From assembly GCA_000002435.2 (NCBI GenBank), contig AACB03000007.1: DNA of 32,836 nucleotides; one strand, given 5' to 3'. The translations under genes were made by a program, and so were the position numbers. The DNA comes from Giardia intestinalis. Its lineage: Eukaryota. The notes under the pieces were generated by a model. The model had not been told where the DNA came from and ran no database searches. It worked only from the letters and a program-made list of their open reading frames with translations. Shown in pieces: positions 2,678 to 32,836 of this stretch (its first letter is position 1; every line of letters starts with the position of its first letter).

Positions 2678-2737
2678 CTCACTCCACTATCATACTATCA
2701 CCCTCTATCACACATTGTACAGCATTCACTACCCAAG
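2678..2737 (-). promoter_or_regulatory. Inter-VSP spacer (60 nt) with a poly(A) signal AGTGAAT at 2724..2730 and a CACTATCA-type tract.
   Basis: The minus strand reads TGA CTTGGGT AGTGAAT GCTGTACAATGTGTGATAGAGGGTGATAGTATGATAGTGGAGTGAG then ATA TGC. AGTGAAT matches the Giardia AGTRAAY poly(A) signal 7 nt after the stop. Confidence 0.7.
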
Positions 2738-4585: not shown

Positions 4586-4642
4586 ACTCCACTATCATAC
4601 TATCACCCTCTATCACACATTGTACAGCATTCACTACCCAAG
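4586..4642 (-). promoter_or_regulatory. Inter-VSP spacer (57 nt) with a poly(A) signal at 4629..4635.
   Basis: It has the same architecture. The plus strand is atcacactccactatcatactatcaccctctatcacacattgtacagcattcactacccaag. Confidence 0.7.
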
Positions 4643-6508: not shown

Positions 6509-6568
6509 CTCACTCCACTATCATACTATCACCCTCTATCACACATTGTACAGCATTCACTACCCAAG
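6509..6568 (-). promoter_or_regulatory. Inter-VSP spacer (60 nt) with a poly(A) signal at 6555..6561.
   Basis: Same conserved spacer. Confidence 0.7.
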
Positions 6569-8320: not shown

Positions 8321-8387
8321 ACTCCACTATCACACATTATCACACTATCACCTTCTATCACACATTGTACAGCATTCACTACCTAAG
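8321..8387 (-). promoter_or_regulatory. Inter-VSP spacer (67 nt) with a poly(A) signal at 8374..8380. It carries an extra cacacattat insertion.
   Basis: The minus strand reads TGA CTTAGGT AGTGAAT. This is an exact match to the extended VSP 3' motif remembered as ACTYAGRTAGTRAAY. The CACTATCA tract is longer here. Confidence 0.7.
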
Positions 8388-10211: not shown

Positions 10212-10271
10212 CTCACTCCACTATCATACTATCACCCTCTATCACACATTGTACAGCATTCACTACCTAAG
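10212..10271 (-). promoter_or_regulatory. Inter-VSP spacer (60 nt) with a poly(A) signal at 10258..10264.
   Basis: TGA CTTAGGT AGTGAAT variant. Same tract. Confidence 0.7.
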
Positions 10272-13200: not shown

Positions 13201-13340
13201 TATCCATTCGCTCCTGTGGCATCATGACAGAGTATGCACTCCCCACCAGGGGTCACCTTGTCTGCCCCATTCTGGAATATGTACTGACTATCTGTATTAC
13301 AAGCAGTGCACAGTCCTCCCTCAGCCTTTGTGCATATCAC
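10272..13340 (-). CDS. Unit 6: long double-core VSP (1022 codons). It is intact and has no ATG.
   Basis: A single ORF runs from a GTG start (13338-13340) to the CRGKA stop. It has two GGCY modules: YMGGCYSVSTQPG encoded near 12100-12140, and KDGGCYQTDRQPG encoded near 10700-10740. About 440 extra Cys-rich residues are inserted between the usual C-terminal module and the TM/CRGKA tail. Confidence 0.85.
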   Translation of the reverse strand: MICTKAEGGLCTACNTDSQYIFQNGADKVTPGGECILCHDATGANGYKGVESCATCTAPDSNKGAATCTACTEGYFLNSNGACEKCNDSCLTCETSATQCTSCKGNTFLKDNACVNSNECTGNTYADPESGTCRDCNTIDQACTQCEVDSTTKKPKCTACDSSKIPRTTLDGTSTCVAKNYAGCQGADNGLFMTEDNVCRLCSDPAASDPEQKNKGIAGCKACMKTASANPTCTECLEGYKSTGVGSVTCTPCHANCATCSAETAEDKCLTCKAGFFLVEVAKPAGKCISCSDTNNGGIDGCAECTKEASTFKCTGCKANYKQSGTSPVTCTKTCEDDTACGGTSGACDAMIIDDQGTTKHYCSYCGETNKIPIDGKCVDSGQKNGNTCDNHICTSCTTGYFLYMGGCYSVSTQPGKSMCKTAANGVCTAVNENNKYFLVPGASNAQQSVLACSNPLGTLVDPQGTAKAYVGVHGCSQCTAPAALTTVGMAAAVCTACDSGKKPNKGGSGCVTCSVGDCKSCVVDNICGECVDGFYFKAGDAPSCVSAEACTNEEGFFIDATEKKCTACADDNCAVCVAKEQQKCSLCKTSGTKKYLKKDGESTTGTCVDTAGCPATHYVDEEAKECNTCVSAGTTDCTTCEKGANGVVCKTCTTDTKTIFGLNRKSCVASCPANSTPKATGQDSQVCECNEGLQPNTESTECQPISNCNTEHCLECTSEGADKEVCTKCLSEYYLTPTSQCVSDCTTLKGYYGNDTDRKCKKCNDACVECKGEGADKCTACPAGRMLQYTDADTPANGGTCMNQCSVSSTNDGCAECGAQIGGTAYCSKCKNTQQAPLDGNCAANTRTRFCTTVSNGACTQCENNYFLKDGGCYQTDRQPGKQVCTTVQGGKCTKCASGLTADNGDCSNKRCHLSCETCTAANDANACATCSTGYYKPQSAGTKCNPCSEGLAGCRQCTVSSTGAFMCFVMGDGTGDNTGGSVNKSGLSTGAIAGISVAVIAVVGGLVGFLCWWFVCRGKA

Positions 13341-13397
13341 ACTCCACTATCATACTATCACCCTCTATCACACATTGTACAGCATTCACTACCCAAG
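13341..13397 (-). promoter_or_regulatory. Inter-VSP spacer (57 nt) with a poly(A) signal at 13384..13390.
   Basis: Same conserved spacer. Confidence 0.7.
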
Positions 13398-15146
13398 TCA
13401 CGCCTTCCCCCTGCACACGAACCACCAGCAGAGGAAGCCCACGAGGCCCCCCACGACGACGACCACGGCCACGGAGATCCCCGCGATGGCCCCCGTGGAG
13501 AGCCCGCCCCTGTTGGTACTCATAGACACACAGGAGGTCCCACTGCTGTCTAGACTGTACCCATCAACACACTCCCCACACACATCATCCACCACACAGC
13601 TCTTGCAGTCACTCACAGAGCACAGCACACACCCACTACCATCCCTGTTGGGCTTCTTACTACTGTCACAAGAGGTACACACAGCGACAGTCATACCAGC
13701 CCCAGTCAGAGCTGCTGGGGCTGTACACTGCGAACAGCCATCCACCCCCACATATGCCTTAGAGGTATCACCAGTGCCTACTAGTGTGCCAAGGGAGTTG
13801 CTACATGCCAATACAGACTGATTCTGATTGGTTGCCCCAGGGACTATGAAGTACCTATTGTTGGCATTAACAGCGGTACAGACACCGTTGGCTGCTGTCT
13901 TGCACATATGTTGTCCAGGTACTGTATCAACCTTGTAACAACCTCCCATATACAAGAAGTAGTTGTTAGTGCATTGTGTACATACACCTTGATCACATTG
14001 ATTATTTGCTTTAGCACTATTACACTTCCCATCTATAGGATACGTATTAGCTTCTCCACAGTATGAGCAATAATGATGCTCTACACCCTTATCATCAATC
14101 ACTATTGCATCGCAGGCACCAGAAGTTCCTCCACAGGCAGTATCATCTTCACAGATCTTGGTGCATGTGACAGAGCCAGTACTGCCCTCCTTGCGATAGT
14201 TAGGCTTACAGTCAGTGCACTTGAAAGCACCGTTGTTAGAGCAGACACTGCAGCCTTCGCGACCCTTATCGTCTACGCTATCGCATGGGACGCACTTCTT
14301 CCCCTGTTGATCTGTAGTAGTTACTAAGAAGTATCCAGTCTTGCAGGTTTCACACTTATTTGGATCACCAGCAACAGAGCATGTGGCACAGTTATCACCA
14401 CACTTGTCTGTACATGTACTAGTACCACTATCAAAGAAGTATCCATCGAGACAGGCTGAGCAGGTTGGATTGTCACTTCCTGTTTTCGTACATGTCTTGC
14501 AGTTGGCCTTTCCTTCGTTACCAAGAGTTGAATCTGTCACATCACTACAAAGAGCACACGTTTTGTCCTCCTTCATAAATAAGGCCTCGTCAGCGCCCTC
14601 GCATCCTTCAAGCGTCTTCGCCACGCAGGTCGATGTCCCGTCGAGGGCCGTCCTGGGGGTCTTATTGGTCCCGCAGTTAGTGCACTTCGGCTTCCCCGTG
14701 GCCTTGTCGAAGGAGCATGCCGTGCACTCTGCGTGTATCGTACTACATGCCTTGCATGTTCCCGACTCCGGGTCAGCATAAGTGTTTCCATCGCATCCAG
14801 TATCTTGTACACATTGATTACTCTTCAGGTACTTCCCCTCTGGGCACGATGTACAATGATTCTGACCACTTCCATCGCAGGTCAGACAAGCGTCATTACA
14901 TTTGACACATGTCTGAGAGTTCTTGTAGTATCCATCTTGGCACTCTGTACACGTGGCAGGTCCTGGACTACTGTCTGACTTGGTACACTGTGCGCAGTTA
15001 GCCACCCCTGTATATCCATCTGCCCCATTGACATCATGACAGAGGATGCACTCACTACCAGGCTTCTGAGGTGTAACTGGGTTCTTGAACAGGCCGTTAG
15101 CTGTCTTACAAGCAGTGCACAGTCCTCCCTCAGCCTTTGTGCATAT
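13398..15146 (-). CDS. Unit 7: VSP paralog (about 582 codons, type c). It is intact and has no ATG.
   Basis: ORF 13398..15005 starts at a GTG (..GVANCAQC). The frame is open upstream to 15146 (ICTKAEGGLCTACKTANGLFKNPVTPQKPGSECILCHDVNGADGYTG). It is almost identical to unit 4. The TM region is slightly different (AVVVVVGG). It ends CRGKA then stop. Confidence 0.85.
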   Translation of the reverse strand: MCTKAEGGLCTACKTANGLFKNPVTPQKPGSECILCHDVNGADGYTGVANCAQCTKSDSSPGPATCTECQDGYYKNSQTCVKCNDACLTCDGSGQNHCTSCPEGKYLKSNQCVQDTGCDGNTYADPESGTCKACSTIHAECTACSFDKATGKPKCTNCGTNKTPRTALDGTSTCVAKTLEGCEGADEALFMKEDKTCALCSDVTDSTLGNEGKANCKTCTKTGSDNPTCSACLDGYFFDSGTSTCTDKCGDNCATCSVAGDPNKCETCKTGYFLVTTTDQQGKKCVPCDSVDDKGREGCSVCSNNGAFKCTDCKPNYRKEGSTGSVTCTKICEDDTACGGTSGACDAIVIDDKGVEHHYCSYCGEANTYPIDGKCNSAKANNQCDQGVCTQCTNNYFLYMGGCYKVDTVPGQHMCKTAANGVCTAVNANNRYFIVPGATNQNQSVLACSNSLGTLVGTGDTSKAYVGVDGCSQCTAPAALTGAGMTVAVCTSCDSSKKPNRDGSGCVLCSVSDCKSCVVDDVCGECVDGYSLDSSGTSCVSMSTNRGGLSTGAIAGISVAVVVVVGGLVGFLCWWFVCRGKA

Positions 15147-15206
15147 CTCACTCCACTATCATACTATCACCCTCTATCACACATTGTACAGCATTCACTA
15201 CCCAAG
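15147..15206 (-). promoter_or_regulatory. Inter-VSP spacer (60 nt) with a poly(A) signal at 15193..15199.
   Basis: Same conserved spacer. Confidence 0.7.
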
Positions 15207-17072
15207 TCACGCCTTCCCTCTACATATGAACCACCAGCAGAGGAAGCCCACGAGGCCCCCCACGACAGCGATGACAGCCACGGAGATCCCCGCGATGGCC
15301 CCCGTGGAGAGCCCGCTCCTGTTGGTGCCAGAGGACACACACATGCCATCCCTCGGGACATAGCCCTCCTCGCACTCCCCGCAGACGCCCTCTGCGCTGC
15401 ACCGCATGCACCTCTCTATGTCACAGACAATGCACTGGGTGCCGTCCAGGCTGGGTCTCTGGTCTTTATTGGTACATGCCTCACACTTGTTGTCTGCGCT
15501 GCAGTGAGAGCAGCCCTGGGCCGGACACACATAGCAGGTGCTTCCAGCCATGTTGGGCTTCTTATTGTCCTCAGCACACACCTCGCACATCCCGTCGATG
15601 GCGCAGCTCTTGCACCCGCCGACCGCACACAGGGTGCACCCGCTGCCATCCTTGTTGGGCTTCTTCGTCTTGTCGCACGCACTACAGACCGCCGCGGCCA
15701 TCGCATTGGCGGCTGGCGCCTGCGGGGCCGCGCACGCCGTGCAGTCTAGCACGCCGACGTACGCCTTGTCGCCCGCGGTCGCTCCCACAGGGTTGCCACA
15801 GGCAAGCACGGACTGCTGAGCAGCAGAGTCCCCAGGAATCTTGAAGTAGCGCCCGACCGGTGTGGTGCAGAACCCACTTGGAGCCGCAGAGCACATGAGG
15901 TTGCCAGGAGCCTTCGACACATCATAGCAACCACCCATATAGAGGAAGTAGTTGTTGGTGCACCGCGTACATACGCCATCGGCGCAGGTATTACCTGCAA
16001 GTGCATTGGTGCACTTCCCATTAATAGGGCCATAGCCGGCGCCAACACACTTTGAACAGTAAGAGAGCATGCTGCCGTCGTTGCCGACCACGATGGCGTC
16101 GCAGGCCCCTGCTGTCCCTCCACATGCAGTCTCATCTTCACAGGTCTTTGTACATGTGAGGTCGCTAGGTTCTCCGCTGGGTCTGTAGTTGGGCTTACAT
16201 TCAGTGCATTTGAGGGACCCCACGCCGCCTGTGCACTCGGCACAGCCTGGAATCCCACTTGTCTCGTCATCACAGAGAACGCATGTCTTAGGCGGGCCAT
16301 CCTTAAGGAAGTACCCCGGCATGCATCTTGTACATGTGTTGATTTGACCCGCTGTTCCGCACTCTGCGCAGTTTCCTGTGCAGGCCTCGCAGGCGTTTCC
16401 GTTGACTTTATACCCGTCGACACAAGCCTCGCAGGTGCCTTTTGCGGTGCACAGCTTGCAGTTCTGGACTCCGCCCTTACCATTGTCGCCGCACTGCACG
16501 CACTTCGAGGCGTCGTAGAAGTGCGTCTTGCCCACTTTGCACTCGGCCTCATCAACACAGGTCGTTGTCCCATCCAGCTCGTCTCTGACCGTCTTACTAC
16601 CGCAGTCGGTGCACTTCGGCTTTCCCGTGGCGTCGTCGTATGCACACGCGGTGCATCCTTGTATCTCACTGCAGGCCTTACAGGTCCAGGTCTTCTTGTC
16701 CGCATAGTTACCATTGTCACATCCACCAGCATCTACACAAGTGTTACCATCCTTCAGGTACTTCCCCTCAACGCAGGCGGTACACTGAGTCGGAGTATCA
16801 GCTGAGCAAGCAGAGCAGCCGTCTCCGCACTTCACACATGCACTGTCCTTCGTAACGAACCCTGCTTGACACTCTGTACACGTGGCCGGTCCGCTAGTGC
16901 CCGTGTGGGAGCATTCTGAGCATCCAGCGACTCCCATGACCCCGTTTCTATTTATAGTATCGGAGCACAGTATGCACTCACTACCCTTCTCTGGTGTTGC
17001 AGCCGGGTTCTTGAACAGGCCGTTAGCTGCCTTACAAGCAGTGCACAGTCCTCCCTCAGCCTTTGTGCATAT
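15207..17072 (-). CDS. Unit 8: VSP paralog (type b, about 621 codons). Its protein is essentially identical to unit 3, and it has the internal ATG at 16935-16937.
   Basis: ORF 15207..16937 matches the unit 3 ORF except for one V/I in the TM. The frame is open upstream to 17072 (..CSDTINRNGVMGVAG). It ends WWFICRGKA then stop. Confidence 0.85.
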   Translation of the reverse strand: MCTKAEGGLCTACKAANGLFKNPAATPEKGSECILCSDTINRNGVMGVAGCSECSHTGTSGPATCTECQAGFVTKDSACVKCGDGCSACSADTPTQCTACVEGKYLKDGNTCVDAGGCDNGNYADKKTWTCKACSEIQGCTACAYDDATGKPKCTDCGSKTVRDELDGTTTCVDEAECKVGKTHFYDASKCVQCGDNGKGGVQNCKLCTAKGTCEACVDGYKVNGNACEACTGNCAECGTAGQINTCTRCMPGYFLKDGPPKTCVLCDDETSGIPGCAECTGGVGSLKCTECKPNYRPSGEPSDLTCTKTCEDETACGGTAGACDAIVVGNDGSMLSYCSKCVGAGYGPINGKCTNALAGNTCADGVCTRCTNNYFLYMGGCYDVSKAPGNLMCSAAPSGFCTTPVGRYFKIPGDSAAQQSVLACGNPVGATAGDKAYVGVLDCTACAAPQAPAANAMAAAVCSACDKTKKPNKDGSGCTLCAVGGCKSCAIDGMCEVCAEDNKKPNMAGSTCYVCPAQGCSHCSADNKCEACTNKDQRPSLDGTQCIVCDIERCMRCSAEGVCGECEEGYVPRDGMCVSSGTNRSGLSTGAIAGISVAVIAVVGGLVGFLCWWFICRGKA

Positions 17073-17132
17073 CTCACTCCACTATCATACTATCACCCTC
17101 TATCACACATTGTACAGCATTCACTACCCAAG
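17073..17132 (-). promoter_or_regulatory. Inter-VSP spacer (60 nt) with a poly(A) signal at 17119..17125.
   Basis: Same conserved spacer. Confidence 0.7.
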
Positions 17133-18941
17133 TCACGCCTTCCCCCTGCACACGAACCACCAGCAGAGGAAGCCCACGAGGCCCCCCACGACAGCGATGA
17201 CAGCGACGGAGATCCCTGCTATGGCACCAGTACTGAGGCCGCTCTTGTTGGTGCCAGAGGACGCACAGGAGGTCCCACTGCTGTCAGGGCTGTATCCATC
17301 GTTGCACACACAGACAGAGTCGGTGTCAGTGGAGTTGCTGGGGCAGCTATCCACGCATGACTTCCTTCCAGGGCTCACCTTCTTACCACTACTGCATGCC
17401 TCGCACATGTTGTCCATATCACAGTGCGAGCATCCACTAACGGTACATGGGAAGCACCCGCTCCCAGCCAGGTTGGGCTTGTTGTTGTTGGTACACGCTG
17501 TGCACGTGGCGGCAGTCATGCCACCATCAGATGGAGCTGCTGGGGCCGTACATGCCGAACAGCCATCTACCCCCACATATGCCTTAGAGGTATCACCAGT
17601 GCCTACTAGTGTGCCTAGGGGGTTCTCGCAGGCCAGGACAGACTGATCAGTATTGGATGCCCCCGGGACCAGGAAGTACCGGCCGTTCTCGCTGGGGGCG
17701 GTGCACCTCCCTCCCTCGGCAGTCTTGCACATGTGGCTGCCAGGAGCCTTCGACACATCATAGCAGCCGCCCATGTACAGGAAGAACCCGGCAGCACACC
17801 GGGTGCAGACGCCATTGGCACAGGTGTTGTCACCCTTAGTTCCTGTGCAGATCCCATCGATGGGGAACGTGGCGGGGTCTCCGCACAGCGAGCAGTACTG
17901 GGAGAACGCCCCGGCGCTGTCAACGACGACCGCCCCGCAGGCCCCAGACGTCCCCCCGCAGGCCGTGGGGTCCTCGCAGGCCTTTGTGCACTTCACCGGA
18001 TTGGTTCCCTCCTTGCGATAGTTGGACTTGCAATCGGTGCATGTAGGGGTTAGGCCGCTGTTACATTGGGAGCACCCCTCGATGCCATTGTCGGCTTTAC
18101 TGTCGCAGGCGAAGCACTTACCAGCAGAGCCGGGTTGTTTCATGAAGAATCCAGGCTTGCATTTAGTGCACTGATCATTGCCAGCAGCAGAGCATGTAGC
18201 ACAGTTGGCACCGCAAGCTGTGCATGTATCAGAACCAAAGTATCCGTCGAGGCAAGCTGAGCAGGTCGGCTTGGCTCCGTTCTTCTTACACGTTTTACAA
18301 TTAGCAATCCCCTTGTCGTTTGCTTCTGTTCCTGTTGTTGTATCACTGCATAATATGCACTTGGTGCTATCATCACTCAGAAAGTGGGATCCGTCGACGT
18401 TATCTGTTGCGCACCCAGCATCATCGACGCAAGTGGTTGTCCCATCCAGCTCTGTCTTCACCTTCTTATTGTTACAGGCGGTGCACTGGGGCTTGCTGAC
18501 AGTCGTGTTGTACTCACACGCGGTGCAATCTGCTATACCAGACTCCTTGCATGTCATTGTCATAGGGTCAGCATAAGTGTTTCCAGTGCATCCATCACTA
18601 TTCACGCATGCATTATCCTTCAGGAACGTATTTCCCTTACAAGAGGTACACTGGGTCGCCGATGTCTCACAGGTCAGACAAGTACCATCACATTTGGTAC
18701 ATGCCTGAGAGTCCATGTAGTACCCATCTTGACACTCGGTGCACGTGGCCGCTCCTGTATTGCCACCAGGTGCCGTGCACTTGAGACAGTTGGCCACTCC
18801 CTTGTTCTCATTCGCTCCTGTGGCATCATGACAGAGGATGCACTCCCCACCAGGGGTCACCTTGTCTGCCCCATTCTGGAATATGTACTTGTTATCTGCC
18901 TTACAAGCAGTGCACAGTCCTCCCTCAGCCTTTGTGCATAT
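17133..18941 (-). CDS. Unit 9: VSP paralog (about 602 codons). It combines a type d N-terminus and centre with a unique C-terminal module.
   Basis: ORF 17133..18860 is extended in frame to 18941 (ICTKAEGGLCTACKADNKYIFQNGADKVTPGGE..). The C-terminal module [73 protein letters not shown] is not seen in any other unit. It ends CRGKA then stop. Confidence 0.85.
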   Translation of the reverse strand: MCTKAEGGLCTACKADNKYIFQNGADKVTPGGECILCHDATGANENKGVANCLKCTAPGGNTGAATCTECQDGYYMDSQACTKCDGTCLTCETSATQCTSCKGNTFLKDNACVNSDGCTGNTYADPMTMTCKESGIADCTACEYNTTVSKPQCTACNNKKVKTELDGTTTCVDDAGCATDNVDGSHFLSDDSTKCILCSDTTTGTEANDKGIANCKTCKKNGAKPTCSACLDGYFGSDTCTACGANCATCSAAGNDQCTKCKPGFFMKQPGSAGKCFACDSKADNGIEGCSQCNSGLTPTCTDCKSNYRKEGTNPVKCTKACEDPTACGGTSGACGAVVVDSAGAFSQYCSLCGDPATFPIDGICTGTKGDNTCANGVCTRCAAGFFLYMGGCYDVSKAPGSHMCKTAEGGRCTAPSENGRYFLVPGASNTDQSVLACENPLGTLVGTGDTSKAYVGVDGCSACTAPAAPSDGGMTAATCTACTNNNKPNLAGSGCFPCTVSGCSHCDMDNMCEACSSGKKVSPGRKSCVDSCPSNSTDTDSVCVCNDGYSPDSSGTSCASSGTNKSGLSTGAIAGISVAVIAVVGGLVGFLCWWFVCRGKA

Positions 18942-19001
18942 CTCACTCCACTATCATACTATCACCCTCTATCACACATTGTACAGCATTCACTACCCAA
19001 G
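18942..19001 (-). promoter_or_regulatory. Inter-VSP spacer (60 nt) with a poly(A) signal at 18988..18994.
   Basis: Same conserved spacer. Confidence 0.7.
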
Positions 19002-20744
19002 TCACGCCTTCCCCCTGCACACGAACCACCAGCAGAGGAAGCCCACGAGGCCCCCCACGACGACGACCACAGCGACGGAGATCCCCGCGATGGCCCCCGT
19101 GGAGAGCCCGCTCCTGTTGGTACTCATAGACACACAGGAGGTCCCACTGCTGTCTAGACTGTACCCATCAACACACTCCCCACACACATCATCCACCACA
19201 CAGCTCTTGCAATCACCCACAGAGCACAGCACACACCCGGTGCCATCCTTGTTGGGCTTCTTATCACTGTCACAGGAGGTGCATGTAGCGGCAGTCATAC
19301 CACCATCAGACAGAGCTGTTGGGGCCGTGCATGCTGAGCAGTTGAGTACCCCAACGTATGCCTTAGAGGTATCACCAGTGCCTACTAGTGTGCCAAGGGA
19401 GTTGCTACATGCTAATACAGACTGATTCTGATTGGTTGCCCCAGGGACTACGAAGTACCTATTGTTGGCATTAACAGCGGTACAGACACCGTTGGCTGCT
19501 GTCTTGCACATATGTTGTCCAGGTACTGTATCAACCTTGTAACAACCTCCCATATACAAGAAGTAGTTGTTAGTGCATTGTGTACATACACCTTGATCAC
19601 ATTGATTATTTGCTTTAGCACTATTACACTTCCCATCTATAGGATACGTATTAGCTTCTCCACAGTATGAGCAATAATGATGCTCTACACCCTTATCATC
19701 AATCACTATTGCATCGCAGGCACCAGAAGTTCCTCCACAGGCAGTATCATCTTCACAGATCTTGGTGCATGTGACAGAGCCAGTACTGCCCTCCTTGCGA
19801 TAGTTAGGCTTACAGTCAGTGCACTTGAAAGCACCGTTGTTAGAGCAGACACTGCAGCCTTCGCGACCCTTATCGTCTACGCTATCGCATGGGACGCACT
19901 TCTTCCCCTGTTGATCTGTAGTAGTTACTAAGAAGTATCCAGTCTTGCAGGTTTCACACTTATTTGGATCACCAGCAACAGAGCATGTGGCACAGTTATC
20001 ACCACACTTGTCTGTACATGTACTAGTACCACTATCAAAGAAGTATCCATCGAGACAGGCTGAGCAGGTTGGATTGTCACTTCCTGTTTTCGTACATGTC
20101 TTGCAGTTGGCCTTTCCTTCGTTACCAAGAGTTGAATCTGTCACATCACTACAAAGAGCACACGTTTTGTCCTCCTTCATAAATAAGGCCTCGTCAGCGC
20201 CCTCGCATCCTTCAAGCGTCTTCGCCACGCAGGTCGATGTCCCGTCGAGGGCCGTCCTGGGGGTCTTATTGGTCCCGCAGTTAGTGCACTTCGGCTTCCC
20301 CGTGGCCTTGTCGAAGGAGCATGCCGTGCACTCTGCGTGTATCGTACTACATGCCTTGCATGTTCCCGACTCCGGGTCAGCATACTTATCATTACCACAG
20401 CTATCAGTACATTGATTCCCATTGAGGTACTTCCCCTCTGGACACGATGTGCACTGGGTCGCCGATGTCTCACAGGTGGCACAGTTCCCCTCGCATGGCT
20501 TACAAAGCTTGTTGTTTAGGAAGTACCCCTCTTGACAGGTATTACACGTGGCAGGTCCTGCATTCCCTGGTGCCGTACACTTGAGACAGTTGGCCACTCC
20601 CGTATATCCATTCGCTCCCTTGATATCAGAGCACAAGATGCACTCCCCACCAGGAGTCACCTTGTCTGCCCTGTTCTGGAATATGTACTGACTATCTGTA
20701 TTACAAGCAGTGCACACTCCACTACTGGCCTTTGTGCATATCAC
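19002..20744 (-). CDS. Unit 10: VSP paralog (580 codons). It combines a type a N-terminus with a type c-like C-terminus.
   Basis: The start is GTG (20742-20744) preceded by TAG. The N-terminus is ICTKASSGVCTACNTDSQYIFQNRADKVTPGGECILCSDIKG. The C-terminal module is CDSDKKPNKDGTGCVLCSVGDCKSCVVDDVCGECVDGYSLDSSGTSCVSMSTNRSG. It ends CRGKA then stop. Confidence 0.85.
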   Translation of the reverse strand: MICTKASSGVCTACNTDSQYIFQNRADKVTPGGECILCSDIKGANGYTGVANCLKCTAPGNAGPATCNTCQEGYFLNNKLCKPCEGNCATCETSATQCTSCPEGKYLNGNQCTDSCGNDKYADPESGTCKACSTIHAECTACSFDKATGKPKCTNCGTNKTPRTALDGTSTCVAKTLEGCEGADEALFMKEDKTCALCSDVTDSTLGNEGKANCKTCTKTGSDNPTCSACLDGYFFDSGTSTCTDKCGDNCATCSVAGDPNKCETCKTGYFLVTTTDQQGKKCVPCDSVDDKGREGCSVCSNNGAFKCTDCKPNYRKEGSTGSVTCTKICEDDTACGGTSGACDAIVIDDKGVEHHYCSYCGEANTYPIDGKCNSAKANNQCDQGVCTQCTNNYFLYMGGCYKVDTVPGQHMCKTAANGVCTAVNANNRYFVVPGATNQNQSVLACSNSLGTLVGTGDTSKAYVGVLNCSACTAPTALSDGGMTAATCTSCDSDKKPNKDGTGCVLCSVGDCKSCVVDDVCGECVDGYSLDSSGTSCVSMSTNRSGLSTGAIAGISVAVVVVVGGLVGFLCWWFVCRGKA

Positions 20745-20822
20745 ACTCCACTATCACACTATCATCACACTATCACCCTCTATCACACACTATCACCCAT
20801 TGTACAGCATTCACTACCCAAG
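20745..20822 (-). promoter_or_regulatory. Inter-VSP spacer (78 nt, the longest) with a poly(A) signal at 20809..20815.
   Basis: The plus strand is actccactatcacactatcatcacactatcaccctctatcacacactatcacccattgtacagcattcact. It carries extra CACTATCA-like repeat units. Confidence 0.7.
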
Positions 20823-23800
20823 TCACGCCTTCCCCCTGCACACGAACCACCAGCAGAGGAAGCCCACGAGGCCCCCCACGACAGCGATGACAGCCACGGA
20901 GATCCCTGCTATGGCACCAGTACTGAGGCCGCTCTTGTTGACGCTTCCGCCGGTGTTGTCGCCAGTGCCGTCGCCCATCACGAAGCACATGAACGCACCG
21001 GTGGATGACACCGTGCACTGCCTGCACCCAGCGAGCCCCTCAGAGCACGGATTACACTTTGTCCCAGCACTCTGCGGTTTGTAATATCCAGTGCTGCATG
21101 TAGCACAGGCGTTAGCGTCGTTAGCAGCCGTGCATGTCTCGCAGCTAAGATGGCACCTTTTATTGGAACAATCGCCATTATCAGCCGTTAGACCACTGGC
21201 ACATTTTGTACATTTTCCTCCCTGCACTGTAGTACACACTTGCTTGCCAGGCTGTCTATCTGTCTGATAGCAACCGCCATCTTTGAGGAAGTAGTTATTT
21301 TCACATTGAGTGCATGCTCCATTACTCACCGTAGTGCAAAATCGTGTTCGCGTATTGGCCGCACAGTTGCCATCCAGTGGTGCCTGTTGAGTGTTCTTGC
21401 ACTTTGAGCAGTATGCAGTTCCTCCTATCTGAGCCCCACACTCTGCGCATCCATCGTTTGTAGAACTCACGCTGCACTGGTTCATGCACGTGCCCCCATT
21501 GGCAGGAGTATCAGCATCTGTATACTGAAGCATCCTCCCAGCAGGACAAGCCGTACACTTATCAGCGCCCTCACCCTTGCACTCTACGCACGCATCGTTG
21601 CACTTCTTGCACTTTCTGTCAGTGTCATTTCCGTAGTAGCCCTTGAGGGTCGTGCAGTCAGATACGCATTGACTGGTTGGGGTGAGGTAGTACTCAGACA
21701 GACACTTTGTACAGACCTCCTTATCGGCACCTTCACTGGTGCACTCCAAACAGTGCTCTGTGTTACAGTTACTGATTGGTTGGCATTCAGTCGATTCAGT
21801 ATTAGGTTGGAGTCCTTCGTTGCACTCGCACACTTGGCTATCCTGTCCGGTGGCCTTGGGGGTAGAGTTAGCAGGGCAACTAGCAACGCACGACTTTCTG
21901 TTGAGACCAAAGATGGTCTTCGTATCAGTCGTACACGTCTTACAAACCACTCCGTTGGCGCCTTTCTCACAAGTGGTGCAGTCAGTTGTTCCAGCCGACA
22001 CACATGTATTGCACTCCTTTGCTTCTTCATCAACGTAGTGGGTTGCCGGACAACCAGCTGTGTCAACGCACGTGCCGGTTGTGGACTCGCCATCCTTCTT
22101 CAGGTACTTCTTGGTCCCAGACGTTTTACACAGGCTGCACTTCTGTTGCTCCTTGGCCACGCACACAGCGCAATTATCATCTGCACACGCGGTGCACTTC
22201 TTCTCGGTAGCGTCGATGAAGAAGCCCTCCTCATTAGTACACGCCTCTGCGCTAACACAGCTGGGTGCATCGCCAGCTTTAAAGTAGAATCCATCAACAC
22301 ACTCCCCACATATATTGTCCACCACACAGCTCTTGCAATCACCCACAGAGCATGTCACACACCCACTACCACCCTTGTTGGGCTTCTTACCACTGTCACA
22401 GGCAGTACACACAGCGGCAGTCATACCAGCTGTTGTTAGAGCTGCGGGGCTGTACACTGGGAGCAGCCATGTACCCCCACATATGCCTTAGCGGTACCTT
22501 GAGGATCTACTAGTGTGCCTAGGGGGTTACTACATGCCAACACGGACTGCTGAGCATTGGATGCCCCTGGTACCAGGAAGTACTTATTATTCTCATTAAC
22601 AGCGGTACAGACACCGTTGGCTGCTGTCTTGCACATATGTTGTCCAGGTGGACTCTGAGTGCTATAACAACCACCCATATATAAGAAATATCCTGTAGTA
22701 CAAGACTCACAGACATGGTTGTTACAAGTATTACTTTGAGCCTCACTAGCACAGAGACCATCTATAGGATACTTACTGCTATCCCCACAGTATGAACAGT
22801 AGTGCTTTGTGGTGCCCTGATCATCTATTATCATGGCATCACAAGCACCAGAGGTACCCCCACAGGCAGTATCATCTTCACATACCTTTGTACATGTAAC
22901 AGGACTGGTACCACTCTGCTTGCGATAGTTCACCTTACAGTCAGTACACTTGAAAGTACTGGCCTCCATTGTGCATTGGGAGCACCCCTCGATGCCCCCA
23001 TTGTTTGTGTCATCGCAGGCGAAGCATTCTCCAGGAGTGCTACTGACCTTCAGGAAGAACCCGGTCTTGCAGGTTTGGCATTTGGTCTTGTCAGCTTTTT
23101 CAGAACATGTGGCACAGTTAGCACCACAGGCCTCACACGTGGCGGCAGGGCCATTTCCTTCTTTGATATACCCTTCGAGGCATTCTATGCATTCTGGTTT
23201 CTGACTTTGCTGCTTAGTACATGTCTTGCAGCCGGCAATGCCTTTGTTCTTTGGTTCTGAATCCGACGCTGCGGGATCACTGCACAAACGACACACGTTG
23301 TCTTCGGTCATAAAGAGACCGTTATCAGCTCCTTGACACCCGGCGTAGTCTTTTGTCACACAGGTCGAGGTCCCATCAAGGGTCGTCCTGGGGGTCTTAT
23401 TGGTCCCGCAGTTGGTGCACCTTGGCTTTCCCGTGGCATCATTATATTCACATGCGGTGCACCCAGCTATGTCGGGATCACATGCCTTGCAGGTCCAGGT
23501 CTTCTTGTCTGCGTACTGGGTTGCCTCGCATCCACTAGCATCTACACATTGATTATTCTTCAGGTACTTCCCCTCAACGCAGGCGGTACACTGAGTCGGA
23601 GTATCAGCTGAGCAAGCAGAGCAGCCGTCTCCGCACTTCACACATGCACTGTCCTTCGTAACGAACCCTGCTTGACACTCTGTACACGTGGCCGGTCCGC
23701 TAGTGCCCGTGTGGGAGCATTCTGAGCATCCAGCGACTCCCATGACCCCGTTTCTATCTATAGTATCGGAGCACAAGATGCACTCACTACCAGGCTTCTG

Positions 23801-23878
23801 AGGTGTAACTGGGTTCTTGAACAGGCCGTTAGCTGTCTTACAAGCAGTGCACAGTCCTCCCTCAGCCTTTGTGCATAT
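20823..23878 (-). pseudogene. Unit 11: long-type VSP with a 1-nt deletion frameshift near 22447. It is split into two ORFs and has a type b N-terminus.
   Basis: ORF 22436..23776 (..HGCSQCTAPQL then stop) and ORF 20823..22457 (MYSPAALTTAGMTAAVCTAC.. to CRGKA) together are colinear with unit 6. Plus 22441-22452 reads gctgcggggctg, where unit 6 has gctgctggggctg at about 11891. The N-terminal part is open to 23878 and is of the MGVAGCSECSH type. Confidence 0.75.
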
Positions 23879-23938
23879 CTCACTCCACTATCATACTATC
23901 ACCCTCTATCACACATTGTACAGCATTCACTACCCAAG
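23879..23938 (-). promoter_or_regulatory. Inter-VSP spacer (60 nt) with a poly(A) signal at 23925..23931.
   Basis: Same conserved spacer. Confidence 0.7.
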
Positions 23939-25779: not shown

Positions 25780-25839
25780 CTCACTCCACTATCATACTAT
25801 CACCCTCTATCACACATTGTACAGCATTCACTACCCAAG
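25780..25839 (-). promoter_or_regulatory. Inter-VSP spacer (60 nt) with a poly(A) signal at 25826..25832.
   Basis: Same conserved spacer. Confidence 0.7.
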
Positions 25840-27687
25840 TCACGCCTTCCCCCTGCACACGAACCACCAGCAGAGGAAGCCCACGAGGCCCCCCACGACA
25901 GCGATGACAGCCACGGAGATCCCTGCTATGGCACCAGTACTGAGGCCGCTTCTGTTGCCCCCGCTGGGCTTGGTGGACACGCACGCCTCACCCTCCAGCC
26001 TGTAGTCGTCCCCGCACTGGCCGCACTTGTTCTCCTCGCTGCACCTGACGCACCCGTCGATATTGCAGGCGATGCACTTCGTTCCGTCTGTGTTCGGCCT
26101 CTGGTCTTTACTGGTACAGGCCTCGCACTTATCGCCTGCTCCACAGTGCGAGCATCCGTCAACGGTACATGCGAAGCACCCGCTCCCAGCCAGGTTGGGC
26201 TTGTTGTTGTTGGTACACGCTGTACACACAGCAGCAGTCATGCCACCATCAGATGGAGCTGCTGGGGCTGTACACTGTGAACAGTTGAGTACCCCCACGT
26301 ATGCCTTAGCAGTATCACCAGTGCCTACTAGTGTGCCAAGGGGGTTACCACATGCTAATACAGACTGATTCTGATTGGTTGCCCCAGGGACTACGAAGTA
26401 CCTATTGTTGGCATTAACAGCGGTACAGACACCGTTGGCTGCTGTCTTGCACATATGTTGTCCAGGTACTGTATCAACCTTGTAACAACCTCCCATATAC
26501 AAGAAGTAGTTGTTAGTGCATTGTGTACATACACCTTGATCACATTGATTATTTGCTTTAGCACTATTACACTTCCCATCTATAGGATACGTATTAGCTT
26601 CTCCACAGTATGAGCAATAATGATGCTCTACACCCTTATCATCAATCACTATTGCATCGCAGGCACCAGAAGTTCCTCCACAGGCAGTATCATCTTCACA
26701 GATCTTGGTGCATGTGACAGAGCCAGTACTGCCCTCCTTGCGATAGTTAGGCTTACAGTCAGTGCACTTGAAAGCACCGTTGTTAGAGCAGACACTGCAG
26801 CCTTCGCGACCCTTATCGTCTACGCTATCGCATGGGACGCACTTCTTCCCCTGTTGATCTGTAGTAGTTACTAAGAAGTATCCAGTCTTGCAGGTTTCAC
26901 ACTTATTTGGATCACCAGCAACAGAGCATGTGGCACAGTTATCACCACACTTGTCTGTACATGTACTAGTACCACTATCAAAGAAGTATCCATCGAGACA
27001 GGCTGAGCAGGTTGGATTGTCACTTCCTGTTTTCGTACATGTCTTGCAGTTGGCCTTTCCTTCGTTACCAAGAGTTGAATCTGTCACATCACTACAAAGA
27101 GCACACGTTTTGTCCTCCTTCATAAATAAGGCCTCGTCAGCGCCCTCGCATCCTTCAAGCGTCTTCGCCACGCAGGTCGATGTCCCGTCGAGGGCCGTCC
27201 TGGGGGTCTTATTGGTCCCGCAGTTAGTGCACTTCGGCTTCCCCGTGGCCTTGTCGAAGGAGCATGCCGTGCACTCTGCGTGTATCGTACTACATGCCTT
27301 GCATGTTCCCGACTCCGGGTCAGCATACTTATCATTACCACAGCTATCAGTACATTGATTCCCATTGAGGTACTTCCCCTCTGGACACGATGTGCACTGG
27401 GTCGCCGATGTCTCACAGGTGGCACAGTTCCCCTCGCATGGCTTACAAAGCTTGTTGTTTAGGAAGTACCCCTCTTGACAGGTATTACACGTGGCAGGTC
27501 CTGCATTCCCTGGTGCCGTACACTTGAGACAGTTGGCCACTCCCGTATATCCATTCGCTCCCTTGATATCAGAGCACAAGATGCACTCCCCACCAGGAGT
27601 CACCTTGTCTGCCCTGTTCTGGAATATGTACTGACTATCTGTATTACAAGCAGTGCACACTCCACTACTGGCCTTTGTGCATATCAC
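25840..27687 (-). CDS. Unit 13: VSP paralog (615 codons, type a, close to unit 2). It is intact and has no ATG.
   Basis: The start is GTG (27685-27687) preceded by TAG. The N-terminus is ICTKASSGVCTACNTDSQYIFQNRADKV. It ends CRGKA then stop. The central and C-terminal modules are as in unit 2. Confidence 0.85.
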   Translation of the reverse strand: MICTKASSGVCTACNTDSQYIFQNRADKVTPGGECILCSDIKGANGYTGVANCLKCTAPGNAGPATCNTCQEGYFLNNKLCKPCEGNCATCETSATQCTSCPEGKYLNGNQCTDSCGNDKYADPESGTCKACSTIHAECTACSFDKATGKPKCTNCGTNKTPRTALDGTSTCVAKTLEGCEGADEALFMKEDKTCALCSDVTDSTLGNEGKANCKTCTKTGSDNPTCSACLDGYFFDSGTSTCTDKCGDNCATCSVAGDPNKCETCKTGYFLVTTTDQQGKKCVPCDSVDDKGREGCSVCSNNGAFKCTDCKPNYRKEGSTGSVTCTKICEDDTACGGTSGACDAIVIDDKGVEHHYCSYCGEANTYPIDGKCNSAKANNQCDQGVCTQCTNNYFLYMGGCYKVDTVPGQHMCKTAANGVCTAVNANNRYFVVPGATNQNQSVLACGNPLGTLVGTGDTAKAYVGVLNCSQCTAPAAPSDGGMTAAVCTACTNNNKPNLAGSGCFACTVDGCSHCGAGDKCEACTSKDQRPNTDGTKCIACNIDGCVRCSEENKCGQCGDDYRLEGEACVSTKPSGGNRSGLSTGAIAGISVAVIAVVGGLVGFLCWWFVCRGKA

Positions 27688-27755
27688 ACTCCACTATCAC
27701 ACTATCATCACACTATCACCCTCTATCACACATTGTACAGCATTCACTACCCAAG
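27688..27755 (-). promoter_or_regulatory. Inter-VSP spacer (68 nt) with a poly(A) signal at 27742..27748.
   Basis: It has an expanded tract (cactatcacactatcatcacactatcaccctctatcacacattg). Confidence 0.7.
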
Positions 27756-29502
27756 TCACGCCTTCCCCCTGCACACGAACCACCAGCAGAGGAAGCCCAC
27801 GAGGCCCCCCACGACAGCGATGACAGCGACGGAGATCCCCGCGATGGCCCCCGTGGAGAGCCCGCTCCTGTTGGTACTCATAGACACACAGGAGGTCCCA
27901 CTGCTGTCTAGACTGTATCCATCAACACACTCCCCACACACATCATCCACCACACAGCTCTTGCAATCACCCACAGAGCACAGCACACACCCAGTACCAT
28001 CCTTGTTGGGCTTCTTATCACTGTCACAGGAGGTGCATGTAGCGGCAGCCATACCAGCTGTTGTTAGAGCTGCTGGGGCCGTACATGCCGAACAGCCATC
28101 TACCCCCACATATGCCTTAGAGGTATCACCAGTGCCTACTAGTGTGCCAAGGGGGTTACCACATGCTAATACAGACTGATTCTGATTGGTTGCCCCAGGG
28201 ACTATGAAGTACCTATTGTTGGCATTAACAGCGGTACAGACACCGTTGGCTGCTGTCTTGCACATATGTTGTCCAGGTACTGTATCAACCTTGTAACAAC
28301 CTCCCATATACAAGAAGTAGTTGTTAGTGCATTGTGTACATACACCTTGATCACATTGATTATTTGCTTTAGCACTATTACACTTCCCATCTATAGGATA
28401 CGTATTAGCTTCTCCACAGTATGAGCAATAATGATGCTCTACACCCTTATCATCAATCACTATTGCATCGCAGGCACCAGAAGTTCCTCCACAGGCAGTA
28501 TCATCTTCACAGATCTTGGTGCATGTGACAGAGCCAGTACTGCCCTCCTTGCGATAGTTAGGCTTACAGTCAGTGCACTTGAAAGCACCGTTGTTAGAGC
28601 AGACACTGCAGCCTTCGCGACCCTTATCGTCTACGCTATCGCATGGGACGCACTTCTTCCCCTGTTGATCTGTAGTAGTTACTAAGAAGTATCCAGTCTT
28701 GCAGGTTTCACACTTATTTGGATCACCAGCAACAGAGCATGTGGCACAGTTATCACCACACTTGTCTGTACATGTACTAGTACCACTATCAAAGAAGTAT
28801 CCATCGAGACAGGCTGAGCAGGTTGGATTGTCACTTCCTGTTTTCGTACATGTCTTGCAGTTGGCCTTTCCTTCGTTACCAAGAGTTGAATCTGTCACAT
28901 CACTACAAAGAGCACACGTTTTGTCCTCCTTCATAAATAAGGCCTCGTCAGCGCCCTCGCATCCTTCAAGCGTCTTCGCCACGCAGGTCGATGTCCCGTC
29001 GAGGGCCGTCCTGGGGGTCTTATTGGTCCCGCAGTTAGTGCACTTCGGCTTCCCCGTGGCCTTGTCGAAGGAGCATGCCGTGCACTCTGCGTGTATCGTA
29101 CTACATGCCTTGCATGTTCCCGACTCCGGGTCAGCATAAGTGTTTCCATCGCATCCAGTATCTTGTACACATTGATTACTCTTCAGGTACTTCCCCTCTG
29201 GGCACGATGTACAATGATTCTGACCACTTCCATCGCAGGTCAGACAAGCTTCATTACATTTGACACATGTCTGAGCGTTCTTATAGTATCCATCTTGGCA
29301 CTCTGTACACGTGGCAGGTCCTGGACTACTGTCTGACTTGGTACACTGTGCGCAGTTAGCCACCCCTGTATATCCATCTGCCCCATTGACATCATGACAG
29401 AGGATGCACTCACTACCAGGCTTCTGAGGTGTAACTGGGTTCTTGAACAGGCCGTTATCTGCTTACAAGCAGTGCACACTCCATCACTGGCCTTGTGCAT
29501 AT
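27756..29502 (-). pseudogene. Unit 14: VSP paralog (type c). Its 5' ~120 nt are degraded by several 1-nt deletions.
   Basis: ORF 27756..29363 is intact from the internal GTG through to CRGKA. At 29455-29502 the 5' end is gccgttatctgcttacaag..ctggccttgtgcatatc, versus gccgttagctgtcttacaag..ctggctgctgtgcatatc in unit 4. The frame is lost here, and minus ORF 29240..29518 drifts into another frame. Confidence 0.7.
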
Positions 29503-29576
29503 CACACTCCACTATCACACATTATCACACTATCACCTCTATCACACCATCACCATTGTAAGCATTCACTACCAAG
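29503..29576 (-). promoter_or_regulatory. Inter-VSP spacer (74 nt, degraded) with a poly(A) signal at 29564..29570.
   Basis: Relative to the spacer at 8321..8387 it has several indels (tgtaagcattcactaccaagtca versus tgtacagcattcactacctaagtca). Confidence 0.6.
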
Positions 29577-31427: not shown

Positions 31428-31484
31428 ACTCCACTATCATACTATCACCCTCTATCACACATTGTACAGCATTCACTACCCAAG
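31428..31484 (-). promoter_or_regulatory. Inter-VSP spacer (57 nt) with a poly(A) signal at 31471..31477.
   Basis: Same conserved spacer. Confidence 0.7.
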
Positions 31485-32836
31485 TCACGCCTTCCCCCTG
31501 CACACGAACCACCAGCAGAGGAAGCCCACGAGGCCCCCCACGACAGCGATGACAGCCACGGAGATCCCTGCTATGGCACCAGTACTGAGGCCGCTTCTGT
31601 TGCCCCCGCTGGGCTTGGTGGACACGCACGCCTCACCCTCCAGCCTGTAGTCGTCCCCGCACTGGCCGCACTTGTTCTCCTCGCTGCACCTGACGCACCC
31701 GTCGATATTGCAGGCGATGCACTTCGTTCCGTCTGTGTTCGGCCTCTGGTCTTTACTGGTACAGGCCTCGCACTTATCGCCTGCTCCACAGTGCGAGCAT
31801 CCGTCAACGGTACATGCGAAGCACCCGCTCCCAGCCAGGTTGGGCTTGTTGTTGTTGGTACACGCTGTACACACAGCAGCAGTCATACCAGTCTCAGATG
31901 GAGCTGCTGGGGCCGTACATGCCGAACAGCCATCTACCCCCACATATGCCTTAGAGGTATCACCAGTGCCTACTAGTGTGCCAAGGGAGTTGCTACATGC
32001 TAATACAGACTGATTCTGATTGGTTGCCCCAGGGACTACGAAGTACCTATTGTTGGCATTAACAGCAGTACAGACACCGTTGGCTGCTGTCTTGCACATA
32101 TGTTGTCCAGGTACTGTATCAACCTTGTAACAACCTCCCATATACAAGAAGTAGTTGTTAGTGCATTGTGTACATACACCTTGATCACATTGATTATTTG
32201 CTTTAGCACTATTACACTTCCCATCTATAGGATACGTATTAGCTTCTCCACAGTATGAGCAATAATGATGCTCTACACCCTTATCATCAATCACTATTGC
32301 ATCGCAGGCACCAGAAGTTCCTCCACAGGCAGTATCATCTTCACAGATCTTGGTGCATGTGACAGAGCCAGTACTGCCCTCCTTGCGATAGTTAGGCTTA
32401 CAGTCAGTGCACTTGAAAGCACCGTTGTTAGAGCAGACACTGCAGCCTTCGCGACCCTTATCGTCTACGCTATCGCATGGGACGCACTTCTTCCCCTGTT
32501 GATCTGTAGTAGTTACTAAGAAGTATCCAGTCTTGCAGGTTTCACACTTATTTGGATCACCAGCAACAGAGCATGTGGCACAGTTATCACCACACTTGTC
32601 TGTACATGTACTAGTACCACTATCAAAGAAGTATCCATCGAGACAGGCTGAGCAGGTTGGATTGTCACTTCCTGTTTTCGTACATGTCTTGCAGTTGGCC
32701 TTTCCTTCGTTACCAAGAGTTGAATCTGTCACATCACTACAAAGAGCACACGTTTTGTCCTCCTTCATAAATAAGGCCCTCGTCAGCGCCCCTCGCATCC
32801 TTCAAGCGTCTTCGCCACGCAGGTCGATGTCCCGTC
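31485..32836 (-). CDS. Unit 16: partial VSP paralog (type a). Its 5' end runs off the window, and it has two 1-nt homopolymer insertions near 32780-32800.
   Basis: ORF 31485..32798 ends CRGKA then stop. It is colinear with units 2 and 13 until 32775-32795, where it reads ggccct..gcccct versus ggcct..gccct in the other copies. These give the spurious reading MRGALTRALFMKEDK. Confidence 0.75.

Follow-up and report, generated by a model that had tools for sequence, protein, structure and literature searches.

In Giardia intestinalis, the members of an array of pseudogenes for variant-specific surface proteins (VSPs) are separated by spacers of one common design, and on balance we regard this junction as a conserved scar that is held uniform by concerted evolution within a silent pseudo-VSP array. 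The stretch of DNA analyzed, referred to below as the window, covers 32,836 nucleotides of contig AACB03000007.1 (assembly GCA_000002435.2). Along its minus strand, VSP pseudogene cassettes of an assemblage A, WB-like G. intestinalis follow one another head to tail. Each junction contains an extended VSP polyadenylation signal, a short linker with an initiator-like motif and a tract of TGATAG-containing units, after which the next cassette opens.

Searching the window for the reverse complement of C-R-G-K-A-stop, we find 15 CRGKA-TGA ends on the minus strand and none in shuffled sequences; these ends define 15 junction spacers, the number counted in the preliminary description of this DNA. A stop-to-stop frame analysis shows that each CRGKA end closes an open frame of 550-1020 codons and that most of these frames open with W-S-[V/E]-I-C-T-K-A immediately after a TAG. 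With one cassette as the query, a database search matched only Giardia variant-specific surface proteins with Pfam domain PF03302, and the WB protein XP_001705784 is 99.5% identical to two cassettes of the window. Every unit ends in a transmembrane segment, CRGKA and a stop codon, as members of Giardia VSP linear arrays do. The first in-frame ATG of the cassettes lies at residue 48-194, with none earlier; the cassette that follows the flagged junction (19002-20750) has neither an in-frame ATG near its start nor a signal peptide.

The units are not all alike in size. The cassettes at both ends of the window are truncated, and two units are approximately 3.1 kb long compared to the usual 1.9 kb or so (10272-13346 and 20823-23887). 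One of these two is a 1024-codon open cassette, while the other, 88% identical to it, is interrupted so that two or more frames result (ORFs 20823-22457 and 22436-23776). At positions 1-2737 there is a third copy, which is truncated. The plus strand carries long ATG- or TTG-initiated ORFs of 237-363 codons that are antisense to the cassettes (e.g., 275-1228, 15036-15749, 30885-31976). GC skew is negative across the whole window, and these antisense ORFs are probably a by-product of the strongly skewed composition.

The features of the junctions are collected in Table 1. The junction flagged in the preliminary description (20745-20822, 78 nt) is the longest of the 15, and it comprises the spacer that follows the stop codon at 20823-20825 together with the first two codons of the next cassette. 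Its first 16 spacer nucleotides plus the A of the stop codon match the extended VSP poly(A) signal, ACUUAGRUAGURAAYRY (bioRxiv 10.1101/2022.03.07.483299), with one mismatch; two spacers have the exact CTTAGG form. The signal is followed by TGTACAATGTG, which contains CAATGTG, a 6/7 match to the VSP initiator PyAATGTT, whose ATG is the start codon (PMC2996952). This near-match is all that the cassettes have; they contain no perfect copy of PyAATGTT, no proper start codon and no signal peptide. The linker between the poly(A) signal and the tract measures 9-11 nt across junctions. The tract itself consists of three to five imperfect units per junction, each 8-11 nt long, ending in TGATAG or TGATAA and having the form NNGTGATAG/NNGTGATAA. 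At the flagged junction it closes with TGA TAG, in frame with the cassette, and the rows reported there by Tandem Repeats Finder span 20748-20799.

Table 1. Features of the cassette junctions (window coordinates unless a locus is named)
Feature	Position	Strand	Basis or remark
Extended VSP poly(A) signal ACTTGGGTAGTGAATGC, overlapping the stop codon by its A; core hexamer AGTGAA	20807..20823	-	
Linker TGTACAATG with initiator-like CAATG	20798..20806	-	Alignment to intact VSP starts
TGATAG tract, five units: GGTGATAG / TGTGTGATAG / AGGGTGATAG / TGTGATGATAG / TGTGATAG	20751..20797	-	
First two cassette codons, TGG AGT = W-S	20745..20750	-	Stop-to-stop frames; counted as spacer in the preliminary description
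Downstream VSP cassette, 582 codons + stop, starts W-S-V-I-C-T	19002..20750	-	Stop-to-stop frames
Upstream VSP cassette end, last codons C-R-G-K-A + TGA stop (20823-20825)	20823..20840	-	Pattern search
Spacer, common 51-nt form	2687..2737	-	
Spacer, common 51-nt form	4592..4642	-	
Spacer, common 51-nt form	6518..6568	-	
Spacer, 61 nt, extra TGTGATAATG unit	8327..8387	-	
Spacer, 51 nt, CTTAGG variant	10221..10271	-	
Spacer, common 51-nt form	13347..13397	-	
Spacer, common 51-nt form	15156..15206	-	Downstream unit 98.4% identical to the unit with the 61-nt spacer
Spacer, common 51-nt form	17082..17132	-	
Spacer, common 51-nt form	18951..19001	-	
Spacer, common 51-nt form	23888..23938	-	
Spacer, common 51-nt form	25789..25839	-	
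Spacer, 62 nt, extra TGTGATGATAG unit	27694..27755	-	
Spacer, 65 nt, extra units and three 1-nt deletions relative to the consensus	29512..29576	-	
Spacer, common 51-nt form	31434..31484	-	
Full-length VSPs with GC3 boundary	L004 9929-11974, L005 9722-11791		Compared with window cassette starts, e.g., 20750

The run of (G)TGATAG that was described at the spacer end on the coding strand is real. The window has 36 copies of GTGATAG, every one on the minus strand, and all but one (35) fall within the 15 spacers; shuffled sequences contain 5.6 +/- 2.1 copies and at most 10. A GTGATAG at 12856-12862, inside the long cassette, was considered as a buried junction and rejected, being ordinary coding sequence (TGT GAT AGC). 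The tract had been called microsatellite-like. A short repeat is indeed present, but it is degenerate, with a unit of 8-11 nt, and would not strictly be called a microsatellite: of the 15 tracts, Tandem Repeats Finder picks up the three longest and no others (period 10-20, 2-5 copies, 77-95% matches), and the common form has just three imperfect units of 8-10 nt. The tandem in-frame stops are found as described: 15/15 spacers close with TGA TAG in frame with the cassette that follows, partly as a consequence of how the edge of an ORF is defined. The 51-nt form of the spacer places successive cassettes in one frame with seven in-frame stops between them, and the longer spacers have stops in all three frames.

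We measured spacers from the stop codon to the last TAG; the rule used earlier, from the stop codon to the GTG codon, adds six bases. By our measure, 11 of the 15 spacers are 51 nt long and ten of these are identical base for base, while the others measure 61, 62, 65 and 72 nt. Such distances between a stop and the next open frame fit the published array spacing of approximately 60 bp. The length variability that had been emphasized is thus a property of four junctions. Of the lengths listed under the earlier rule, 57 (at eleven junctions), 67, 68 and 78 nt are recovered; 60 and 74 nt are absent, and a length of 71 nt is present. The 71-nt spacer (29512-29576) would become 74 nt if its three deletions were repaired. 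A multiple alignment of the 15 spacers, proposed at the outset as a check, resolves them into the common 51-nt form and four longer variants made by unit addition; the differences amount to whole units (TGTGATAATG, TGTGATGATAG and GGTGATAGTG), and variation by gain or loss of short units is borne out. The long spacers are tied to a single downstream 5' haplotype, CCAGTRRTGGAGTG, and because of this linkage we consider them inherited rather than recently slipped. With the common length dominant and the long variants linked in this way, the case for a slippage-prone tract is weak; the lengths compared are those of paralogous junctions and of unrelated assemblies. The common spacer, for its part, is paired with at least six upstream and at least six downstream haplotypes.

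Single-nucleotide deletions are concentrated in two places. The 115 nt at 29462-29576 contain six of them relative to a 97.5%-identical paralog, among them the three in the 65-nt spacer, and the cluster breaks the cassette frame at 29462. Another seven lie within positions 1-330 of the window, judged against paralogs of 97-99% identity, and the rest of those units is nearly free of indels. Both clusters probably reflect a poorly polished long-read consensus, in one case as an internal patch and in the other at the contig end.

The same junction is found outside this contig. Two unrelated short-read metagenome assemblies (L002 and L003) contain CRGKA-TGA-CT[T/C]AGGTAGTGAATGCT... followed by one to six TGATAR units, and these units are joined to differing points of the VSP body. 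At 1880-2147 of L003 there is a mini-cassette consisting only of the last 70 or so VSP codons (GCKSCVVDNICGEC...CRGKA), with the same type of junction on both sides; therefore units of very different length share the junction element. In addition, four WB gene models of 2007 (P0007, P0008, P0017 and P0021) start with tract-derived peptides of differing length, opening with MLYSDSDS(DS)AMWCGGDS... or MIVLCGVLCSVGDSDS... (also given as MLYSDSDSDSAMW...). The MLY of these models corresponds to ATGCTGTAC in the spacer, and, judged from the protein sequences, the SDSDS appears to be the tract read as AGT-GAT, in frame as Ser-Asp repeats. If this is correct, the tract is read through in other WB arrays and the supply of stops is not a constant property of it. 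Since the junction occurs in both metagenome assemblies and in the 2007 models, the tract is no artifact of this assembly, and the expectation that it would be present in independent assemblies holds. Pattern scans for the junction or for the CRGKA-poly(A) signal gave no match in JGI metagenome, bacterial/archaeal genome and viral collections.

Other 2007 models begin inside cassettes. The ATG-initiated ORFs at 31485-32798, 2738-4021 and 25840-27123 are WB VSP gene models of that year, and XP_001705784 is 98.1-99.5% identical to them. These internal-ORF models and the spacer-starting models (MLYSDSDS...) are annotation artifacts of the array, without signal peptide. Reading the junction as a scar explains why older WB models start with MLYSDSDS... 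and why such ORFs do not represent genuine VSPs.

The cassettes have lost considerably more than a leader. In nine full-length, signal-peptide-bearing VSPs, the counterpart of the cassette start WS[E/V]ICT is PGSEICT at residue 104-105 or so, which leaves the cassettes without about 104 N-terminal codons, i.e., the leader plus approximately 90 mature residues. At the DNA level, VSP coding homology resumes after the tract at (T)GGAGTGAGATATGCACA, matching CCTGGCAGTGACATATGCACA (P-G-S-D-I-C-T) of one full-length gene. In the two full-length genes with DNA, GC3 is 0.84 in the first 104 codons versus approximately 0.50 in the remainder; because of this drop, we conclude that the cassettes start at a real module boundary (PGSEICT). 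The truncation point is not arbitrary. Identity between VSPs in this 5' module is 67%, compared to 48.5% for the next 250 residues. It had been suggested that the stops stand exactly where the signal-peptide codons should be. The initiator-like CAATGTg and the alignment of the first 13-15 nt with a VSP start agree with this placement, but "exactly" is too narrow, since some 104 codons are gone and not just a leader of 14-17 residues. Nor does the tract destroy a leader frame, as was also proposed, because no leader frame remains. A different kind of defect is seen at 9931-10000 of L004 (an ENA assembly), where a stand-alone VSP has a leader-like AFLLIPLFAVSTIA with no ATG or initiator ahead of it; this may be another route by which a VSP becomes a pseudogene.

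Where might the tract come from? Intact VSP starts in two P15 genes (L005, L009) read CAATGTTGTTGATAGC, i.e., CAATG TTG TTG ATA GCx, encoding M-L-L-I-A. A VSP gene recovered from two human gut metagenomes (L007/L008) starts with TCAATGTTTTTAATAGTC...TTTGATAGC, in which TTTGATAGC lies inside the signal peptide. TGATAG is thus an out-of-frame reading of the Leu-Ile-Ala codons in the leader of intact VSPs. The spacer sequence that follows the poly(A) signal agrees with a VSP start at 13 of 15 positions (z = 3.0, shuffle p approximately 0.01), a comparison that covers 15 columns with two 1-nt gaps and very few intact genes, none of them from WB. The 5' edges of two truncated assemblage B VSP paralogs read ATGTTGATAGTGCGTGGTGG versus TAGGTGATAGTGCGTGGTGG, also given as ATGTTGATAGTGCGTGG versus TAGGTGATAGTGCGTGG; the assemblage B locus L001 is not an array of this type and yields one 5' relic. 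An origin of the tract from the normal VSP 3' flank was also considered. The assemblage B flank GATGAGGGTGTGGGTATTGTGGAG is superficially alike, but the alignments are no better than those with shuffled sequences (p = 0.17-0.94), and we rejected this candidate.

The preliminary description had asked whether the tract also stands 5' of expressed VSPs. We find none at the intact or stand-alone VSPs of L004, L005, L007/L008 and L009, a small sample without a WB gene, where the only trace is a single TTGATAG in the signal-peptide codons; nor does the tract follow the poly(A) signal at seven stand-alone VSP ends. Units such as AGGGTGATAG are a counterpoint to an origin from the gene start, for they have no counterpart in the signal peptide and amplification must therefore be assumed. 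Taken together, the alignments lend moderate support to an origin of the tract from a VSP gene start, of which it would be the decayed and slightly amplified scar, joined through a deletion to codon 105 or thereabouts.

We compared the 15 junctions pairwise. The differences amount to 1-3% at -60 to +60 around the stop codon and 10-18% further into the conserved 3' end, versus 35-45% in the cassette bodies. The non-coding spacer is as conserved as the CRGKA and transmembrane codons, and the junction is the most conserved part of the unit. Such conservation of the tract could equally mean selection for a function.

The window also contains a higher-order duplication with an offset of approximately 10.6 kb, in which several cassettes of 1-8400 recur at 10654-19000 with 98.8-99.5% identity. 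The duplication is interrupted by segments of much lower identity; therefore, cassettes or parts of cassettes have been replaced within an otherwise recent duplication. The ends of blocks with at least 97% identity, at 2794, 4576 and 6676, each lie no more than about 110 nt from a junction (2738, 4643 and 6569, respectively). These are three of five transitions, with junction neighborhoods making up approximately 10% of the sequence; the two copies were compared in a MAFFT pair alignment at 100-nt resolution, and the conservation of the junctions itself blurs the breakpoints. Exchange of unit-sized pieces that starts and stops within the conserved block would fit this pattern. Between the two 98.4%-identical units, the spacer (51 versus 61 nt) and the opening 35 nt of the cassette differ, a pattern suggestive of a conversion patch. 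The suggestion that the tract is a recombination or breakpoint site fits these data in part: near-identity blocks tend to end at junctions, but the conserved island is the whole block from -60 to +60 and not the tract alone.

These observations can be arranged into a simple history. An ancestral VSP gene would have lost codons 5 to 104 or so, leaving Inr-ATG-TTG-(TTG)-ATA-G (Met-Leu-Leu-Ile-Ala) fused to the body. A piece containing TGATAG might then have been duplicated a few times by slippage, and the whole unit would have spread by tandem duplication and unequal exchange. If unit-sized exchanges begin and end in the conserved block formed by the 3' coding end, the poly(A) signal and the tract, they would keep the junction near-identical, and its uniformity would reflect concerted evolution instead of selection on the tract. 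The cassettes could not be translated into a surface protein and would serve at most as sequence donors to complete VSP genes, a role already put forward by Adam et al. (2010). In this light, what was first observed at the junction is partly confirmed, and the interpretation placed on it is partly supported.

Among the alternatives, the one that survives best is that the junction is a dedicated recombination signal marking the 5' limit of each silent cassette, with a complete VSP gene supplying the initiator, the signal peptide and the GC-rich 104-codon module and the cassette supplying the body. We consider this unlikely. One copy of the junction does precede every cassette in the window (15/15), the element recurs in other arrays and in the two metagenome assemblies, and both its low divergence relative to the bodies and the tendency of near-identity blocks to end there would be expected of such a signal. 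The cassettes also start where full-length VSPs switch from the conserved GC3-rich 5' module to the variable body, and arrays of this kind have been published as proposed donors for recombination or gene conversion. However, the tract-free intact and stand-alone loci leave the recipients without matching homology, the tract is joined to different points of the VSP body in different arrays, and the one clear conversion patch ends approximately 35 nt inside a cassette and not in the tract. Antigenic switching in Giardia, moreover, proceeds without DNA rearrangement (background in PMC2996952).

A related and quite improbable reading would make the VSPs of this clade out of two exchangeable modules, a conserved GC3-rich 5' module (initiator, signal peptide and approximately 90 residues) and a variable body stored in arrays. 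The junction block (3' coding end, poly(A) signal and TGATAG tract) and PGSEICT would then act as recombination handles that move cassettes within arrays and occasionally join them to a 5' module.

It is very unlikely that the spacers are truly identical and their length variation is an assembly artifact of a collapsed or poorly polished repeat contig. Two groups of 1-nt deletions do exist, one at 29462-29576 and one close to the left end of the window, but the spacers differ in length by whole units (10, 11 or 21 nt) to which substitutions are linked, unlike homopolymer errors; other unit numbers appear in independent short-read assemblies, and the four 2007 WB models begin with tract-derived peptides that differ in length. 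We give equally little credence to the G/T-rich tract acting in cis in RNA processing or protein binding, whether as a downstream element for cleavage and polyadenylation or as a series of WGATAR-type binding sites that contribute to silencing the array. TGATAG fits WGATAR, and the tract is strongly conserved. It also begins approximately 13-15 nt past AGTGAA, the cleavage distance reported for Giardia (bioRxiv 10.1101/2022.03.07.483299). Against this, stand-alone VSPs, the ones that are transcribed and polyadenylated, do not have the tract; no structure is predicted for it (fold z = +0.4 and -0.6) and it has no Rfam match; and neither a GATA-type factor nor a downstream polyadenylation element is documented for Giardia in the literature we found. 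A structured RNA or a known RNA family was considered in its own right and rejected (no Rfam match; fold z-scores of +0.4, -0.6 and +1.0).

The least credible reading, a contingency (phase-variation) repeat in which changes of 8-11-nt units move an upstream ATG in and out of frame and so turn a cassette on or off, has in its favor unit lengths that are not multiples of three, ATGs just upstream and a tract that appears open and in frame with the cassette in other WB arrays (MLYSDSDS...), but the frame analysis largely refutes it (every junction has TGA-TAG in frame with its cassette, all three frames stopped in the longer spacers). The single length of most junctions and the linkage of length variants to flanking haplotypes also speak against it, as does the fact that even an in-frame ATG would yield a protein without signal peptide and without its 104 or so N-terminal residues.

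Much of the setting has been described before. Adam et al. (2010; PMC2996952) reported linear VSP arrays with intervening regions of approximately 60 bp on average, in which downstream members have no initiator, and hypothesized that these members might be cassettes that are not expressed, or genes that have been discarded. Xu et al. (2020; PMC7000408) noted that arrayed pseudo-VSPs have no start codons; the arrays are concentrated in small unplaced contigs, which in the PacBio assembly of WB measure less than 33 kb (PMC7000408). Given its length, its truncated end cassettes and the 1-nt deletion clusters near one end, the window is probably a contig of this sort. Pseudo-VSPs also keep the extended poly(A) signal (Rodriguez-Walker et al., bioRxiv 10.1101/2022.03.07.483299). 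The window resembles these linear or pseudo-VSP arrays in its head-to-tail order, its spacing of approximately 60 bp, its retention of the CRGKA end and the extended poly(A) signal and its lack of PyAATGTT, start codon and signal peptide. It goes beyond them in the TGATAG units, the CAATGTg, the extreme conservation of the spacer and the start of cassettes at the boundary of a GC3-rich module. In the Giardia literature we found no description of the TGATAG content of the VSP spacer, only primer sequences. Earlier work thus covers the arrays, their spacing, the absence of start codons and the idea of cassettes as donors. New detail lies in the tract's anatomy, and we add the structure of the junction, how conserved it is, where it probably came from and the module boundary.

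A debate of many years on Giardia asks if the pseudo-VSPs in arrays are junk or instead form a reservoir from which new surface antigens arise. The poly(A) signal, the gene-start relic, the TGATAG units and the cassette start at the GC3 boundary provide landmarks with which the reservoir idea can be tested in long reads. The TGATAG repeats look like the remnant of a gene start and not a new kind of switch, and if the junction is only a scar, which we judge most likely, it remains a useful annotation detail. If the two-module reading were true, Giardia would have a route to new expressible VSPs by diversification of the Pneumocystis-UCS or VSG type.

Similar arrangements are known in other organisms. 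In Giardia muris, telomere-adjacent pseudo-VSPs form tandem arrays that have no signal peptides and are untranscribed (PMC7641422), and phylogenetic signs of recombination or gene conversion with intact VSPs have been found there (PMC7641422). Those arrays differ from the present one in belonging to another species, in their tail motif (GCRGK) and in their position next to telomeres. A second parallel is the 70-bp repeats ahead of silent VSGs in Trypanosoma brucei, where a short imperfect repeat likewise marks the 5' edge of the cassette and the 3' end is conserved. The 70-bp repeats also occur at the expression site and are documented boundaries of gene conversion, whereas the intact Giardia VSP loci examined do not have the tract; to our knowledge, no rearrangement is associated with switching in Giardia. 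The MSG arrays of Pneumocystis are similar in that silent copies without start codon or leader are preceded by a conserved junction element (the CRJE) and the 5' module is separate. There, a single expression site, the UCS, supplies the leader by recombination at the CRJE. We know of no VSP expression site in Giardia, where, unlike in Pneumocystis, complete VSP genes number more than 130 and every one of them has a 5' module of its own.
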